Origin: Candidatus Pacearchaeota archaeon
GTDB lineage: Archaea > Nanobdellota > Nanobdellia > Pacearchaeales > GW2011-AR1
NCBI GenBank assembly: GCA_018303895.1
Contig: JAGVXJ010000068.1
Coordinates: 1 to 25,492, forward strand
Reading direction: 5' to 3'
Length of the DNA: 25,492 bases
Below, piece by piece: positions 3,601 to 20,311 of this stretch. The notes below the pieces were generated by a model. It searched no databases. It worked only from the letters and a program-made list of their open reading frames with translations, and was not told where the DNA came from. Made by a program: the position numbers and the translations under genes. The stretch's first letter is position 1, and each line of letters starts with the position of its first letter.

Positions 3601-3636
3601 TTGTACTTTTCTTCTAATAATTTTCTGACCCTCTAT
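3601..3636 (-). repeat. Second copy of the last 12 codons of eIF5A (33 of 36 nt identical to 3678-3713)
   Basis: The copy reads ata gag ggt cag aaa att att aga aga aaa gta caa; the gene reads ata gag gga caa aaa att att aga aga aaa gta taa. Confidence 0.95.
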
Positions 3637-3669
3637 GCGAAGCGACTACGTTCGGCGAGCATTTCTGGA
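3635..3669 (-). repeat. Dispersed mini-element copy C
   Basis: Minus strand tccagaaatgctcgcc-gaa-cgtagtcgcttcgcat aligns with copies A and B. It contains GCGAAGC on the + strand at 3637-3643. Confidence 0.8.
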
Positions 3670-3677
3670 ACAAAAAA

Positions 3678-4070
3678 TTATACTTTTCTTCTAATAATTT
3701 TTTGTCCCTCTATATCCCAATATTCACAATTTTCGCCTTCAACTAATTGGGCGAACAATTCTTCATCAGGGCAAGGAATATCCATTGTTTCAAAATTTTC
3801 TAAATCCATAACACTCGCAACTTTATCTCCTTTTGAAAGAACTTGTGCTTTTCTTTTATCCACCATTGGAACTTCGAACTTATCATGTCCCGGGCTAACA
3901 AAAACTTTCTTGTTTCCTGCAATTAAAGGCATTGCTTCAATTCTACATTTTGCGTGTCCGTGCTTTCCTGTCTTTGAAACATCCATACTTCTTACAACGC
4001 AAGGAACTCCATCAACCATAATGTTGACGCCAGCTTTCGCCTCTGTTGCCTCTATAATTTTTAATACCAT
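3678..4070 (-). CDS. eif5a: Translation factor aIF5A/eIF5A (130 aa; start corrected to ATG 4070)
   Basis: Hypusine motif SKTGKHGHAK and C-terminal OB-fold text QVLS...VMDLENFET. The longer track ORF overlaps the promoter region and the divergent gene. Confidence 0.95.
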   Translation of the reverse strand: MVLKIIEATEAKAGVNIMVDGVPCVVRSMDVSKTGKHGHAKCRIEAMPLIAGNKKVFVSPGHDKFEVPMVDKRKAQVLSKGDKVASVMDLENFETMDIPCPDEELFAQLVEGENCEYWDIEGQKIIRRKV

Positions 4071-8532: not shown

Positions 8533-9285
8533 ATGATAATAAAATTACTTGTTGAGGGTGGAGAAATGAAACCAGGACCAACTCTTAGTCAGAAGCTTGG
8601 ACCAGCTGGAATAAATATGAATCAGGTTCTTCAAAAAATTAATGAATCGACTGCTGATTTCAAGGGACTTAAAGTTCCGGTAGAATTAGATGTTGACGTC
8701 GGAACAAAGATTTTTGAAGTTAAAGTTTTTTCACCACCAGTTTCAGAACTTTTGAAAAGAGAGCTTAAAATTGAAAAAGGATCCGGAACTCAAAAAAAAC
8801 AGTTTGCAGCAAATGCTTCAATTGAACAAATAATTTCTGTAGCTAAAACTAAATTTTCAAACATGCTTTGTAAGGATTTAAAATCTGCAGTTAAAACCGT
8901 CGTTGGAACTTGTGTTTCACTTGGAGTTTTAATTGAAAATAAATCACCTGTTGAAATAGAACATGAAATTGATGAAGGAAAATTTAACAAGGAAATCAAA
9001 GAAGAAAAAACAAAAACTTCTGAAGAAAAAAAGAAACAACTTGAAGAATATTTCTCTGATGTAAAGTCGCAACAAGATAAACTTCTCAAACAGATAAACT
9101 TCTCAAACAAGAACAAGCTGCTAAAGAAGCTGCTGCCGCTGCTGCACAAGCAACTGCCACGACTACGGCTGCTACTCCTGCTGCAACTTCTGCGACGGCA
9201 ACTACGCCAAATGCTCCTGCAAAAACAGCAGAAGCAAAAGCGCCCGCAAAAAAAGAAGCTAAGAAAAAGTAAAACTTTTTCATAA
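8533..9285 (+). CDS. rpl11: Ribosomal protein uL11 with a C-terminal extension; tail frameshifted by a 17-bp duplication (alternative-frame stop TAA 9270-9272)
   Basis: KLLVEGG...PGPTLSQKLGP, VPVELDVD, PPVSELLK and VVGTCVSLG. Confidence 0.93.
   Translation: MIIKLLVEGGEMKPGPTLSQKLGPAGINMNQVLQKINESTADFKGLKVPVELDVDVGTKIFEVKVFSPPVSELLKRELKIEKGSGTQKKQFAANASIEQIISVAKTKFSNMLCKDLKSAVKTVVGTCVSLGVLIENKSPVEIEHEIDEGKFNKEIKEEKTKTSEEKKKQLEEYFSDVKSQQDKLLKQINFSNKNKLLKKLLPLLHKQLPRLRLLLLLQLLRRQLRQMLLQKQQKQKRPQKKKLRKSKTFS
9075..9108 (+). repeat. Perfect 17-bp tandem duplication (agataaacttctcaaac x2) inside rpl11
   Basis: Seen directly at 9075-9091 and 9092-9108. Confidence 0.95.
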
Positions 9286-9312
9286 ATGCTCGTCGACGCA
9301 GTCACTTCGCAT
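9279..9312 (+). repeat. Dispersed mini-element copy B
   Basis: ttcataaatgctcgtc-ga-cgcagtcacttcgcat; 30 of 32 arm positions identical to copy A. Confidence 0.85.
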
Positions 9313-9370
9313 AAAGAAGAAATAAACTGCTTTTTGTGTTGTTTTTGAATGTTAATCAATCAGCAAATAA

Positions 9371-9378: not shown

Positions 9379-9402
9379 CAAATTTTAGCTGAATTTCGTT
9401 AT

Positions 9403-9476
9403 GGGGATATGGGGTAGCCTGGTTAGCCTATGAGGTTTGGGACCTTATGACCCCGGTTCAAATCCGGGTATCCCCA
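9403..9476 (+). tRNA. tRNA-Pro (TGG), intron-less, no encoded CCA
   Basis: GGGGATA...TGAGG TT TGG GA CCTTA...CCCGG TTCAAAT CCGGG TATCCCC A; perfect 7-bp acceptor stem. Confidence 0.95.
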
Positions 9477-9592
9477 TTAGTAGTTGAATGAAATGAAACT
9501 ACTTCGGATTTGAAATTCAAATCCCGAGCGATTTCGCGAATAAGAAAAACGAATTGATTTAAACTGAGCGAGGTCGCGAGTTAGGTATCCCC
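9477..9592. mobile_element. Palindrome-rich ~110-bp element ending in a 9-bp copy of the tRNA-Pro 3' end (att-like)
   Basis: ggtatcccc occurs at 9467-9475 and 9584-9592. Stems at 9479-9503 and 9506-9524. Internal repeat gagcgaNNtcgcga at 9526-9539 and 9566-9579. Confidence 0.5.
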
Positions 9593-9673
9593 CAAATTTT
9601 ATCGCTCAATCAAAAATAGAATAATTTAAAAACCATTTTTGTAATCTATTATTATATTATCTAGAAACTAACC

Positions 9674-11814: not shown

Positions 11815-13467
11815 ATGGAAAACAAAAATGTCCTTTTAGGATTTGCGAGTGTTTTAGGATTATTAATTCTAGCTAGTCTTGTAGTCGGATTAAGTATTTC
11901 AAATCCTTTTTCAGTTTCATTATCTAACTCAACGAACTCTGGAAGTGTTTCAGTTTCTGGAGATGACCTATTTAATGTAACCACTTCTCTTCCAGTTTCA
12001 AAAGAAGACAGCACAAACAAAGTTAAGTTTACTTTAACTAATACTACTGCCATTATAAATGTAACTTCAGCAACTTTCACAATTTCAGCACAAGAACTTT
12101 CTGATGTTGGTTTTCTTGATACTTACTCTGTAGCTTTTGAGCTTGATTCTGTCAACGCTTCAAATTCTTCAGATACAGATAAATTTAATATAACTGCTTC
12201 TTACCAAAATACTGAATATTGTTCTGAAACTATATCAAATAATATAGATGTAGAAATCACAGACATTATTACCCAATCAGGTTTGGGTGATGATGATAAT
12301 TATTGGTATCCAATGGATGATGTTGAAATAGAAGTAAAAGTTAGTTATGATGGTTCAGATACTAAAGATGAATTCCAGAATGGAGAACTAAGCTGGGCAA
12401 TTTATACTTCAGACGGAAAGCAAATTATGGATGGAACTGAAGACATTGCAGATATTGAAGATGGAGACGATGACACGGTTTATATTTCATTCAGAGTTGA
12501 TCCAGATGATTTTGATTCAGAAGTTGAAGATTATATACTATATATTTCTGCAACTGGAGAAGAGGACTATTCTGAATCTTCAAAATCAAATGCAGACATT
12601 TGTGCTTCTTCAGATCCAGAGAGTATTGATTTGAGAGTTAATGATGATTTTGTAACTTTAGACAATCTTGAACTTTCTTCAGGATTAAATACTACTCAAT
12701 GTGGCGAAGAAATTCAAATTAACGGAGATGTATGGAACATTGGTTCTGATAAACAGAAAGAAGTATCTGTTAGAGTTTATAGTTCTGAACTTGGTTTGAA
12801 TAAATATTTAGATGTGGGAGACATAAGTGCTTTTGATAATGAGGTTCTTCCGTTATTATCTTTCAAAATTCCTGAAAATGCTACAGCAAAAACTTATACT
12901 ATCCGATTTGAAGTACTAGATGAAAGCGGGGATATTTATGAAAATAATGATGATGATGTTTCATCTTCTTTCGCATTCCCATTAAAAGTTGAAGGAACTT
13001 GTGGTTTGCCTTCTTCCACTTTGTCTATATCTATTCCCGAAGCAGTTGAGGGTATATCTGGAAAAGATTTAGTTGTAAAAACTTCAATTACCAATCTTGG
13101 AACAAGTATAGTTAGTTTGACTTTAAGTCCAAAAGATTATTCTGGCTGGGCTTCTTCGATGAATGTCGAGCCACAAGTTTTAATTCTTGGTGCTGGAGAA
13201 ACTAAAGAAGCTTCATTTACTTTCAAAACAAAAGAAGATGTTTCAGGAGACAAAACTTTCAATCTTGAAGTTCTTTCATCTGGAAAAGTTGTTTCAACAA
13301 AACCTTTCAGCGTAACTTTAAGTGAATCATCAAATATTTTCACCGGATTGATTGACAAAATAAAATCTGGCGTCGGAGCAAGTTGGTACTTGTGGTTAAT
13401 CGGTGCAATAAATCTTATCTTAATTATTGTGATAATCGTTGTAGCTGTAAAAGTTGCACGGAAATAA
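11815..13467 (+). CDS. Putative S-layer-associated surface protein (acidic Ig/CARDB-like domains, C-terminal TM anchor)
   Basis: Signal peptide, many sequons, VWNIGSDKQKEV and ITNLG Ig-like strands, and C-terminal LWLIGAINLILIIVIIVVAVKVARK. Confidence 0.75.
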   Translation: MENKNVLLGFASVLGLLILASLVVGLSISNPFSVSLSNSTNSGSVSVSGDDLFNVTTSLPVSKEDSTNKVKFTLTNTTAIINVTSATFTISAQELSDVGFLDTYSVAFELDSVNASNSSDTDKFNITASYQNTEYCSETISNNIDVEITDIITQSGLGDDDNYWYPMDDVEIEVKVSYDGSDTKDEFQNGELSWAIYTSDGKQIMDGTEDIADIEDGDDDTVYISFRVDPDDFDSEVEDYILYISATGEEDYSESSKSNADICASSDPESIDLRVNDDFVTLDNLELSSGLNTTQCGEEIQINGDVWNIGSDKQKEVSVRVYSSELGLNKYLDVGDISAFDNEVLPLLSFKIPENATAKTYTIRFEVLDESGDIYENNDDDVSSSFAFPLKVEGTCGLPSSTLSISIPEAVEGISGKDLVVKTSITNLGTSIVSLTLSPKDYSGWASSMNVEPQVLILGAGETKEASFTFKTKEDVSGDKTFNLEVLSSGKVVSTKPFSVTLSESSNIFTGLIDKIKSGVGASWYLWLIGAINLILIIVIIVVAVKVARK

Positions 13468-13474
13468 TTTTAAA

Positions 13475-13762
13475 ATGAAAAAAATGAATTTGAAGAGGTT
13501 TGGACTTTTAGGTTTGCTGGCTGGAATGATTTCCTTAAATAGTTGTGCTGGTTCTTGCCAAAATGCTTGCAGTGATATTTCACGGGATGCAATTAGAAGA
13601 GATTATGTTCTAACTTTGTACGGGTGTGACGGCAAAGAAATTGAAAAAAGAGAGCTTAAACATACATTCATCGAAGTCTCTGAGAATGGTTCTGGTATTA
13701 GATATGTCCAAAATGATAAATTAATTATGATAAATGGGACTTATATTCTGGAAGAAAAATAA
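13475..13762 (+). CDS. Small lipoprotein-like hypothetical protein (95 aa; start corrected to ATG 13475)
   Basis: MKKMNLKR, a hydrophobic stretch, then an LNSC lipobox-like motif; beta-rich C-terminus ending NGTYILEEK. Confidence 0.65.
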   Translation: MKKMNLKRFGLLGLLAGMISLNSCAGSCQNACSDISRDAIRRDYVLTLYGCDGKEIEKRELKHTFIEVSENGSGIRYVQNDKLIMINGTYILEEK

Positions 13763-13765
13763 TTT

Positions 13766-13816
13766 TTATCTCTCCCCATAAAAAATTCTTTCGTAAATTC
13801 TCGTCCATAATTTTTT
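13766..13816 (-). repeat. Second copy of the last 17 codons of the PAP2 gene (47 of 51 nt identical to 14038-14088)
   Basis: The copy encodes KKLWTRIYERIFYGER*; the gene encodes KKLWTRIYERIFYGEK*. Confidence 0.95.
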
Positions 13817-13818
13817 GT

Positions 13819-14037
13819 TCTTCATGGAAAGTTAATCGTTAACTTTCTATAGCGTAGCGAGAAAAATTATTTAGATTTTTCTTCATGGAAAGTTAATCGT
13901 TAACTTTCTATAGCGTAGCGAGAAAAATTATTTAGATTTTTCTTCATGGAAAGTTACTTGTTAACTTTCTATATGTTTTGTTCACAAAATATTTCTGAAC
14001 GAATCTTATTCGTTCTATAGCGTAGCGAGAAAAAAAA
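13819..14037. repeat. 61-bp tandem repeat array (starts 13819, 13880, 13941) plus a variant fourth module; hairpin + TATAGCGTAGCGAG units
   Basis: Stem gaaagttaa-tcg-ttaactttc. Tail ttctatagcgtagcgagaaaaa at 13845, 13906 and 14013. Variant stem gaacgaat-ctt-attcgttc at 13997-14015. Confidence 0.95.
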
Positions 14038-14658
14038 TTATTTTTCTCCATAGAAAATTCTTTCGTAAATTCTCGTCCATAATTTTTTTTCTTTTTCCCC
14101 ATACATAACAAATTCTCCAATCAAGTATCCGATTATTGCGCCGAATATTACATCACTTAAGAAATGAACTCCAAAGTATACTCGTGAAAAAGCAATCAGA
14201 CATGCAAAAACAATCCAGACATATTTGAATCTTGGAAATTCTTTACTCAAAATTGGAATTGAACAAAATGCAAGCATTGCTTGAAATGAAGGGAAAGAAT
14301 AATTCCAAATAATAAAATTTTCTTTTATCAATAAAGGTAAAGTTTCAACTATTTCTTGTTGAAATGGCCTTAATCTTTGAACCCCAACCTTTAATAAAAA
14401 ACTTACCATCACTGCGAGCAGAGAAGATACCCACAACGGCAAAACCCATTTTCTTTTGTGTTCTCGCCACATAAACAAGCTCGTTAAAATTAATAAAATA
14501 ATTACTTCTGAACTTACAAAAGTAACTCCCAAAAAAACTTCATCCAGAATATCTCCCCTCAAAAAAGAAACTTTCTCGACGATTTGTGCATCAAAATACA
14601 AACTTATCAGCCCAACTATCACTGCAATTAAAAGAATAATTATTCCTTTTTTTTTCAT
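14038..14658 (-). CDS. PAP2-family membrane phosphatase with a degenerate C2 motif
   Basis: C1 KVGVQRLRP, C2 SFPSFQ (normally PSGH), C3 SRVYFGVHFLSD; several TM helices. Confidence 0.85.
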   Translation of the reverse strand: MKKKGIIILLIAVIVGLISLYFDAQIVEKVSFLRGDILDEVFLGVTFVSSEVIILLILTSLFMWREHKRKWVLPLWVSSLLAVMVSFLLKVGVQRLRPFQQEIVETLPLLIKENFIIWNYSFPSFQAMLAFCSIPILSKEFPRFKYVWIVFACLIAFSRVYFGVHFLSDVIFGAIIGYLIGEFVMYGEKEKKLWTRIYERIFYGEK

Positions 14659-19705: not shown

Positions 19706-20311
19706 TTAATAATAATTCTTAAGATAAATTTGGTAGTTTTTTCCTTTTATGAATTCACTCCAACCAACTCTGGATGTCTTGGTTTGGCTTCCTTCCGAAA
19801 TACTCGTCACTGTTTCTTTTTGTTCACCATCAATCTTATAAATATTAAGTGAGAAACTTTTAACATAGCTTTCTTTTCCAGGATTAAAACTTTGATTTAT
19901 TGCGCCACGAAATATAGTCTCCATTCTTTTACATATGTCTTCATTTGTATTTTCACACTTTTGTTTAGTCACACATTGCGGAACCATGTCTTTCAAAGTT
20001 AAAATTTTTCCATTCATGCTACAGTTTGTGGTAATTTGTAAAGCAGATTCTAAAAAACTATCAAGTTGATAATCTTTTTCTTCAATTCCTTTTTTTCCAG
20101 TCAAAACAAAACCCAAAACAATCAAAAGTATAACCATAACTAAAATCATGATTAATACAAATCCCACCATTTCCTCCTGTCCAGATTTTCTGGATAGGCT
20201 TGAAAGATTTCTTTTAGAAATCTTTTCCTCTTGAGCTTTTTTCTTTTGAAAAAAGTCAACGTGATGATTTGTCCACAAATCTTTCTCCTGTCCAGATTTT
20301 TTTATTTTCAT
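19706..20311 (-). CDS. Pilin-like protein (class III signal-like KSG/QEEMVGF + hydrophobic helix) with an expanded leader
   Basis: Basic leader, G|Q junction, then 20+ hydrophobic residues and a Cys-containing globular domain. Confidence 0.65.
   Translation of the reverse strand: MKIKKSGQEKDLWTNHHVDFFQKKKAQEEKISKRNLSSLSRKSGQEEMVGFVLIMILVMVILLIVLGFVLTGKKGIEEKDYQLDSFLESALQITTNCSMNGKILTLKDMVPQCVTKQKCENTNEDICKRMETIFRGAINQSFNPGKESYVKSFSLNIYKIDGEQKETVTSISEGSQTKTSRVGWSEFIKGKNYQIYLKNYY

Follow-up and report, generated by a model that had tools for sequence, protein, structure and literature searches.

The question raised by this locus is why the last codons of a phosphatase gene, together with their stop codon, occur a second time a short distance downstream of the gene, and what was placed between the two copies. 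The window, meaning the whole stretch of 25,492 nucleotides that was analysed, is contig C11 of a 792-kb genome (32% G+C, 71% complete) whose proteins match those of Pacearchaeota and Nanoarchaeota. The gene itself (14038-14658, minus strand) was predicted as an ORF of 206 aa and belongs to the PAP2 superfamily, with a match to Pfam PF01569 at 4.2e-20 and 72.3 bits against a gathering cut-off of 27.2; its homologues in Pacearchaeota and Nanoarchaeota are named PAP2 or undecaprenyl-diphosphatase. The proximal tail copy, A, comprises the last 16 codons plus TAA and is the functional end of the gene (14038-14088, minus strand), and the distal copy, B (13766-13816, minus strand), is identical to it at 47 of 51 nt. 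A repeat finder applied to the window returned the same pair as a 51-nt direct repeat of 92% identity with a spacing of 272 nt. The match, the spacing, the four codon differences (TTC/TTT, GGA/GGG, GAA/GAG and AAA/AGA) and the TAA terminating both copies were all recovered as the earlier note had described them. A 51-mer with four mismatches in 25 kb is far beyond chance. The similarity becomes ~6 nt longer if one indel is allowed, and then reaches into the AAGAA end of the element described below. The closest homologues keep the tail motif W-T-R-I-Y-E-R-I-x-Y-G-E-K/R, and natural PAP2 endings include GEK as well as GER. Copy B stops 3 nt from the stop of a convergent, small lipoprotein-like gene (13454-13762, plus strand; an ORF with no Pfam match) that bounds the locus. 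The reading favoured here, at a probability of roughly 0.55, is that copy B is a non-functional spare PAP2 tail, left when a palindromic mobile element entered the 3' end of the gene.

Given that the data are metagenomic and that some scaffolds contain N gaps in the repeat array between the copies, two strain haplotypes of the PAP2 end might have been chained during assembly, which was the outcome that the earlier note named as refuting its proposal. Fourteen sequencing runs contain this organism. Every junction of the locus was present in Logan contigs from four runs of four studies, including the run from the plus-strand gene into copy B (13450-13811) and that from copy B into the first 61-nt unit (13787-13847), and a single 417-nt contig (13927-14343) covers a unit, copy A and the PAP2 body. 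Logan depth was the same on the two flanks, and five independent ENA/JGI assemblies gave the same order. Complete junction k-mer paths in four studies, equal flank depth and agreement among assemblies contradict a join of haplotypes, and an artefact of this type is scarcely credible. An N gap falls within the 61-nt array in two of the five assemblies, and the 2.6 units of the window are accordingly an uncertain number.

Read in the direction of the gene, the spacer begins right behind the PAP2 stop with a run of eight T (14030-14037, minus strand), which is the left end of the element and likely acts as an archaeal oligo-T terminator; at most other loci the proximal stop is also followed by a T5-T8 run. 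Next comes a long-form type-1 element (13940-14029, minus strand) for which three hairpins were predicted on the antisense strand. Counted with its T-run, this element measures 98 nt (13940-14037), has a fold z of -3.7 on the plus strand and is 97% identical to C82:15645-15742, which lies behind the aIF5B gene. It is followed by two 61-nt tandem units (13818-13939, minus strand), each made of a foreign mini-tail (EEKSK and a stop) and then a short-form element; by Tandem Repeats Finder the array extends over 13818-13973 with period 61, 2.6 copies and 97% matches. The match for the unit is a 208-aa gene on C82, with which it aligns over the final codons, the stop and the element behind them (56 of 62 columns identical, one 3-nt gap), so elements can carry an upstream tail and its stop along with them. 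In one run (X10), a contig placed at 13884 and 13945 exits a 61-nt unit after TTCTTCA into the unrelated sequence TCTTTCTTGGCGG.., which suggests a further copy of the element at a locus outside this assembly.

Across the genome, the spacers fall into three families (types 1, 2 and 3), with hybrids of types 1 and 2. The ends of type 1 are arranged as TTTTTCT-CGCTACGCTATAGAA-hairpin-CCATGAAGAA, type 2 reads CTTTCAT-ATGCTCGYCG-(0-50 nt)-CGCAGTSRCTTCGCAT-RAAG, and type 3 is a third type of hairpin; the putative terminal inverted repeats are only 6-8 nt long and of low complexity (TTTTTCT/AGAAAAA and CTTTCAT/ATGAAAG). The genome contains 14 type-2 right arms, 8 type-1 cores and 5 type-3 copies, while a reversed-sequence control for the three types gave none and the core motif had no match in 100 shuffles. 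The type-1 core was also present behind four further genes. Nineteen of 24 element copies lie at most 200 nt behind the stop of a co-oriented ORF, compared with 35% of random positions (P=1e-5). The element is 40-100 nt long and occurs at many genes, the inserts between tail copies are 40-270 nt long, and no pair has an ORF between its copies. Up to E = 5, Rfam covariance models returned nothing relevant for five element loci. The type-1 core motif was absent from the other genomes among 60 relatives, and the type-2 arm was found in only two of 100 relatives (G005 and G010, from two other genera of the family), where it likewise comes with duplicated tails. At two loci of G005 (L038 and L044, on contigs C8 and C74), elements of type 2 run in frame through Lys-rich ORFs with no stop, in the manner of Rickettsia palindromic elements.

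The 800 nt downstream of each of 1143 ORFs of at least 100 aa were scanned, on the strand of the ORF, for a copy of its last eight residues plus stop with 6/8 or more identical. The scan returned 12 cases and its reverse-complement control none; at least 12 genes have a second tail no more than 300 nt behind the first. The genes concerned encode uS7, aRF1, aIF5B, FEN1 (the PIP-box tail), a RadB-like ATPase, a DHH/RecJ-like protein, an SMC/Rad50 protein, PAP2 and unknowns. Shorter tail copies were found in addition at eIF5A, uL11 and sites on C1, C15, C19, C28 and C47, and there are about 15 sites in the genome at which an element behind a stop codon is followed by a second gene tail. Every pair inspected has a co-oriented, hairpin-containing spacer between its copies. 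The distal copy begins at an RAAG motif common to the element end and the gene tail, and similarity between the copies stops at the stop codon plus 0-20 nt, giving a duplicated target of 9 to about 60 nt; at some loci, e.g. C19, the left junction has no T-run. Young pairs are identical or nearly so (22/22 at C19, 41/42 at L158 and 20/20 at tRNA-Pro of the sister lineage introduced below). In G001, a genome of the same genus assembled from 36 fetched stretches (594 kb, 856 ORFs), a single, low-complexity tail repeat was found, and searches with the type-1 core and type-2 right-arm motifs gave no match. Exact tandem repeats spanning gene ends were also seen at C34:560-700 (SMC/Rad50-like, beside an N gap) and C9:3560-3725; they may be very young events or reflect limits of the assembly, and were left out of the evidence.

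Three further instances are located within the window. The eIF5A tail is followed by a type-2 element and a tail copy identical at 33/36 nt (3601-3713, minus strand) in which the stop has been lost, and the end of the uL11 gene (KKK and stop) is followed by a minimal type-2 element and another KKK and stop (9258-9325, plus strand). At 9402-9608 (plus strand), tRNA-Pro has behind it an insert together with pieces of its own 3' end, a relic that was split by a nested insertion; in the sister lineage, the final 20 nt of tRNA-Pro are exactly repeated around an inverted type-2 element.

The differences between paired tails are mostly silent. Pooled over pairs, 22 were synonymous and 4 non-synonymous where 18% synonymous would be expected (P=4e-13); because some pairs were detected by amino-acid similarity, this count is biased against non-synonymous change, and the codons beyond the eight detection residues contain 6 silent differences and no replacement. 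The count is conservative in that boundaries were set at the nucleotide level and the most diverged pairs were truncated. In uS7, the 42-nt tail (13 codons plus stop) differs at 10 nt without any amino-acid change and includes a Ser switch between TCT and AGT; a TCC/AGT switch is present in aIF5B, and the aRF1 pair shows 11 silent differences against 1 replacement. The aIF5B tails are 28% different, and the element between them is 97% identical to that at PAP2. Such codon variety exists among real genes: in 75 distinct metagenomic uS7 ends, the Ser is TCN in 59 and AGY in 16, and both Arg codon families occur. The distal uS7 copy lies 5 nt from one real uS7 end (L142) and 10 nt from its own proximal copy. 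Decay of a dead copy in place cannot give such a pattern; the two copies of such pairs must have been working gene ends in different lineages, and uS7, aRF1, aIF5B and FEN1 provide strong evidence for separate coding histories. PAP2 is thus not the strongest support for the earlier note's model of gene-end capture, which is upheld in general form: the layout recurs genome-wide with a synonymous excess, and a C82 gene end sits in the 61-nt units.

Series of tails were found as well. Three extra copies follow uS7 at C62:1-300 (L050), the last of which (KNEAEK..QADSVR and stop) is split by a nested mini type-2 element, and 6 of 80 metagenomic uS7 loci (30-42% G+C) have one to three extra tails with spacers starting CTTTCAT. 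At L142:1659-2030, four uS7 tails all end in ADSAR and a stop, with Ser codons AGT, TCT, AGC and TCT and Arg codons CGT, AGG, CGT and AGA; the array looks like two diverged tail-element-tail modules in tandem. A second aRF1 tail was present in three lineages (this genome, the sister and a third), with different spacers. One distal aRF1 copy has an internal deletion and two replacements. The distal copies of two lineages differ by 9 silent against 2 replacement changes, and a distal-distal pair is the closest of all (11/63 nt) in a nearly star-like tree. This divergence fits independent recent insertions, and could also reflect an unexplained constraint on distal copies. The sister aRF1 (L059:1501-2994) is 497 aa long with a match to an intein-splicing domain; here the protein (C81:5778-6869) is 363 aa without an intein, and in both the second tail lies downstream.

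The age of the PAP2 event was judged against a sister lineage with conserved synteny, 78-88% identical in nucleotides along 19 kb and ~93% identical in PAP2, which has no second PAP2 tail and whose sites at PAP2, eIF5A and uL11 are all empty. Its PAP2 tail reads ACA..ATA TTT..GGA GAG AAA, whereas copies A and B both have ACG and ATT in place of ACA and ATA. The event is thus younger than the split from the sister, given the empty site and the shared ACG and ATT. Relative to the sister, each copy has two changes of its own: in copy A these are the silent TTC and GAA, and in copy B they are GGG, which is silent, and AGA, which replaces Lys by Arg. The earlier note had called this near-pure synonymous change and had concluded that both copies were coding under selection. 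The three silent changes and the one replacement stand, but for PAP2 they are not significant, and the pair alone does not show selection on both copies: a duplication made in place, after which the dead copy drifted, explains the differences equally well. The eIF5A pair gives a similar picture, with an empty sister site, a single silent change in the proximal copy and a distal copy that lacks its stop.

That one copy came from a related strain was also part of the earlier proposal, and it agrees with the separate lineages seen at other loci. Under such an import, which is a serious rival at PAP2 though less probable than the favoured reading, tail A, its stop, the T-run and the element would have come from a close relative, and homology-facilitated recombination would have displaced the native tail B downstream, as in fungal mitochondrial mobile ORFs. 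Paired tails with histories in different lineages are well supported at other loci, copy B is contiguous with native downstream context, ending 3 nt from the neighbour's stop, and its K>R variant GER is a natural homologue ending; at eIF5A, one informative site is a CAG of the sister that the distal copy keeps and that is a silent CAA in the proximal copy. Against it, the shared ACG and ATT and the two private changes in each copy would make any donor nearer than all sequenced relatives. No PAP2 between 66% and ~93% identity was found among 5.8 billion proteins, and no donor can be named, as the next closest PAP2 is only 66% identical. JGI metagenome contigs contained neither an empty allele (PAP2 body joined to the native downstream flank, 0 matches) nor an allele with tail B as its working end, a weak result in that near-identical records may have been absent from the scan. 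For the PAP2 pair itself, the data do not separate a duplication made in place from import out of a very close relative.

Other explanations would dispense with an element that makes the duplication, or would give copy B a role. A tandem slip may have duplicated the tail first, with hairpin elements landing there later by chance; tandem amplification is active here and elsewhere (the 61-nt array, C25, C9 and L194), but at more than 15 loci the distal copy begins immediately at the right end of the element, whose orientation follows that of the gene, a regularity that independent later landings would not give, and G001, which matches neither element motif, has no tail duplicates beyond its low-complexity repeat. 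This sequence of events is improbable. Still less likely, the copies would be attL and attR of a site-specific integrative element (a virus or plasmid) that had entered the PAP2 3' end and was later almost wholly deleted. The duplication of tRNA 3' ends, which are classic integrase targets, and a tyrosine recombinase gene on C9 would suit that origin; the ORF-less interval between all copies, a repeat length varying from 9 to 60 nt and the same 40-100 nt element at many different genes do not, nor was any tail copy found 0.8-8 kb downstream in this genome or at 80 uS7 loci. The earlier note had further drawn attention to an in-frame ATG that would make copy B a 19-aa frame. The ATG is present (13823-13825), contributed by the terminus of the element, and opens the frame MKNKKLWTRIYERIFYGER plus stop (13766-13825, minus strand), and a peptide or alternative C-terminus could be argued from it, from the intact stop and from codon-clean distal copies at several loci. 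At other loci, however, the codon in that position reads ATA, is lacking or lies out of frame, distal copies show lost stops (eIF5A), deletions (L062) or nested insertions (uS7, tRNA-Pro), and here a T8 run lies ahead of the array. The frame is probably not a gene, and any function of the distal copy is very unlikely, slightly more so than an att origin.

For the favoured reading, in which an element entering the 3' end of PAP2 made the duplication, the junction sequences suggest a possible route. The left end of the element, rich in pyrimidines, is similar to the oligo-T behind stop codons, and the right end, rich in purines, is similar to the Lys/Glu-rich stretch of codons that lies slightly ahead of the stop. 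On insertion, microhomology might link each end to the target at two sites taken in reversed order, and the tail and stop lying between those sites would then be present on both sides of the element. The outcome would be equivalent to a long target duplication whose length can vary but which always takes in the stop. The proximal copy would remain the working gene end, now followed by a fresh T-run, and the distal copy would decay. At PAP2, the element would have arrived first and the array of such elements later, after the split from the nearest known relative. With age, pairs would gain the tails of relatives, probably by homologous recombination, for which the conserved gene body on one side and a tail copy or shared element on the other would serve as homology arms.

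Candidate enzymes were sought in the genome, which is 71% complete. GIY-YIG, HNH, LAGLIDADG and Cas1 gave no matches in it, TnpB gave sub-threshold matches only, and a XerA-like integrase is unlinked to the elements. So is a truncated IS200/IS605 Y1 TnpA at a contig end (C15:4852-5052; L063:1468-1701); the hairpin ahead of it (CCCCACAGC/GCTGTGGGG) bears no relation to the gene-end elements, and no transposase with ends matching the element was found in this 71% of the genome. A more far-reaching and tentative proposal, doubtful as it now stands, is that DPANN archaea host ORF-less portable gene-end cassettes (tail, stop, terminator and hairpin) that spread between lineages without a dedicated enzyme, the duplicated tail of a conserved gene and the gene body serving as homology arms. 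If so, homing would need nothing beyond the recombination of the host, and species would repeatedly exchange the 3' ends of their essential genes.

The closest published analogue found is the carboxy-terminal duplication made by mobile ORF elements of fungal mitochondria, reported for Allomyces atp6 and for Glomus atp6, atp9, cox2 and nad3, where the tail of the gene was taken to have moved horizontally along with the element (PMC3630166). Both systems have a working end, an element and a displaced C-terminal copy with mainly silent differences. In the mitochondria, mobility is driven by an ORF of ~1 kb encoding a LAGLIDADG or GIY-YIG endonuclease, whereas the inserts here are 40-270 nt long, have no homing endonuclease or other ORF between the two tails, and belong to DPANN archaea rather than organelles.

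Among prokaryotic MITEs and palindromic repeats (Correia/NEMIS, RPE, REP/REPIN and ERIC; reviewed in PMC10969869), the likeness is in small, multicopy, hairpin-forming, ORF-less units that lie mostly at gene ends and sometimes in frame within genes, like some G005 copies; the short terminal inverted repeats of such elements have a counterpart here of only 6-8 nt of low complexity. MITEs make a short target duplication of fixed length, whereas the duplication here ranges from 9 to ~60 nt and regularly crosses a stop codon; the review (PMC10969869) does not mention stop codons or C-terminal duplication. The element accordingly resembles MITEs in being small, ORF-less and multicopy and departs from them in its target duplication, and no autonomous parent with the same ends was found in the genome (71% complete). 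A Y1 transposase gene flanked by the repeats, as in REP/REPIN systems, was not found either; the C15 fragment has a different hairpin. Nor does any recombinase-bearing element lie between the gene-end repeats in the manner of integrase att sites, the inserts being ORF-less. Phage 21 and e14 integrate into the 3' end of icd in E. coli and supply an alternative 3' end that keeps icd working, with a silently different displaced end; unlike the elements here, they are integrase-driven, kilobase-scale prophages of a single site. IS91/ISCR, Helitrons and IS200/IS605 derivatives have hairpin-dependent ends and carry over adjacent host sequence. The EEKSK-stop units carry a host tail in a similar manner, but no HUH partner with matching ends was found here. 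Searches of the literature on MITEs or palindromic elements of Pacearchaeota and Nanoarchaeota returned nothing relevant, and no description of an element behind a stop codon followed by a second gene tail was found for archaea or bacteria.

The best reading of the element is that of a MITE-like unit with a variable, stop-spanning target duplication and exchange of tails between lineages. Were this correct, palindromic elements in ultra-small archaea would rebuild the 3' ends of core genes of translation, replication and repair, and the displaced tails would record lineage exchange at nucleotide resolution, offering a direct measure of recombination between uncultured DPANN species. Many mini-ORFs that mimic gene ends behind genes would be explained, and annotators would be warned that such frames are scars. 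The layout known from mitochondrial homing endonucleases would be extended to cellular genomes, here without the nuclease.

Three minor observations concern element-like arrangements of other kinds. At 698-847 of the window, the 3' end of tRNA-His directly adjoins a type-2 element whose middle is 44 nt long and which faces the other way from the usual order of gene and element. On another contig of this genome (C44:4780-4900; L047), a type-2 element seemingly lies between two similar gene starts (ATGGAAAAAGAA.. and ATGGATGAAGGC..), which may represent duplication of a gene 5' end. At 20174-20300 of the window, a 16-nt perfect repeat occurs 111 nt apart in a pilin-like leader with a hairpin between, and the alignment of the window to the sister splits into overlapping segments across this interval, for which the duplication may be the reason.
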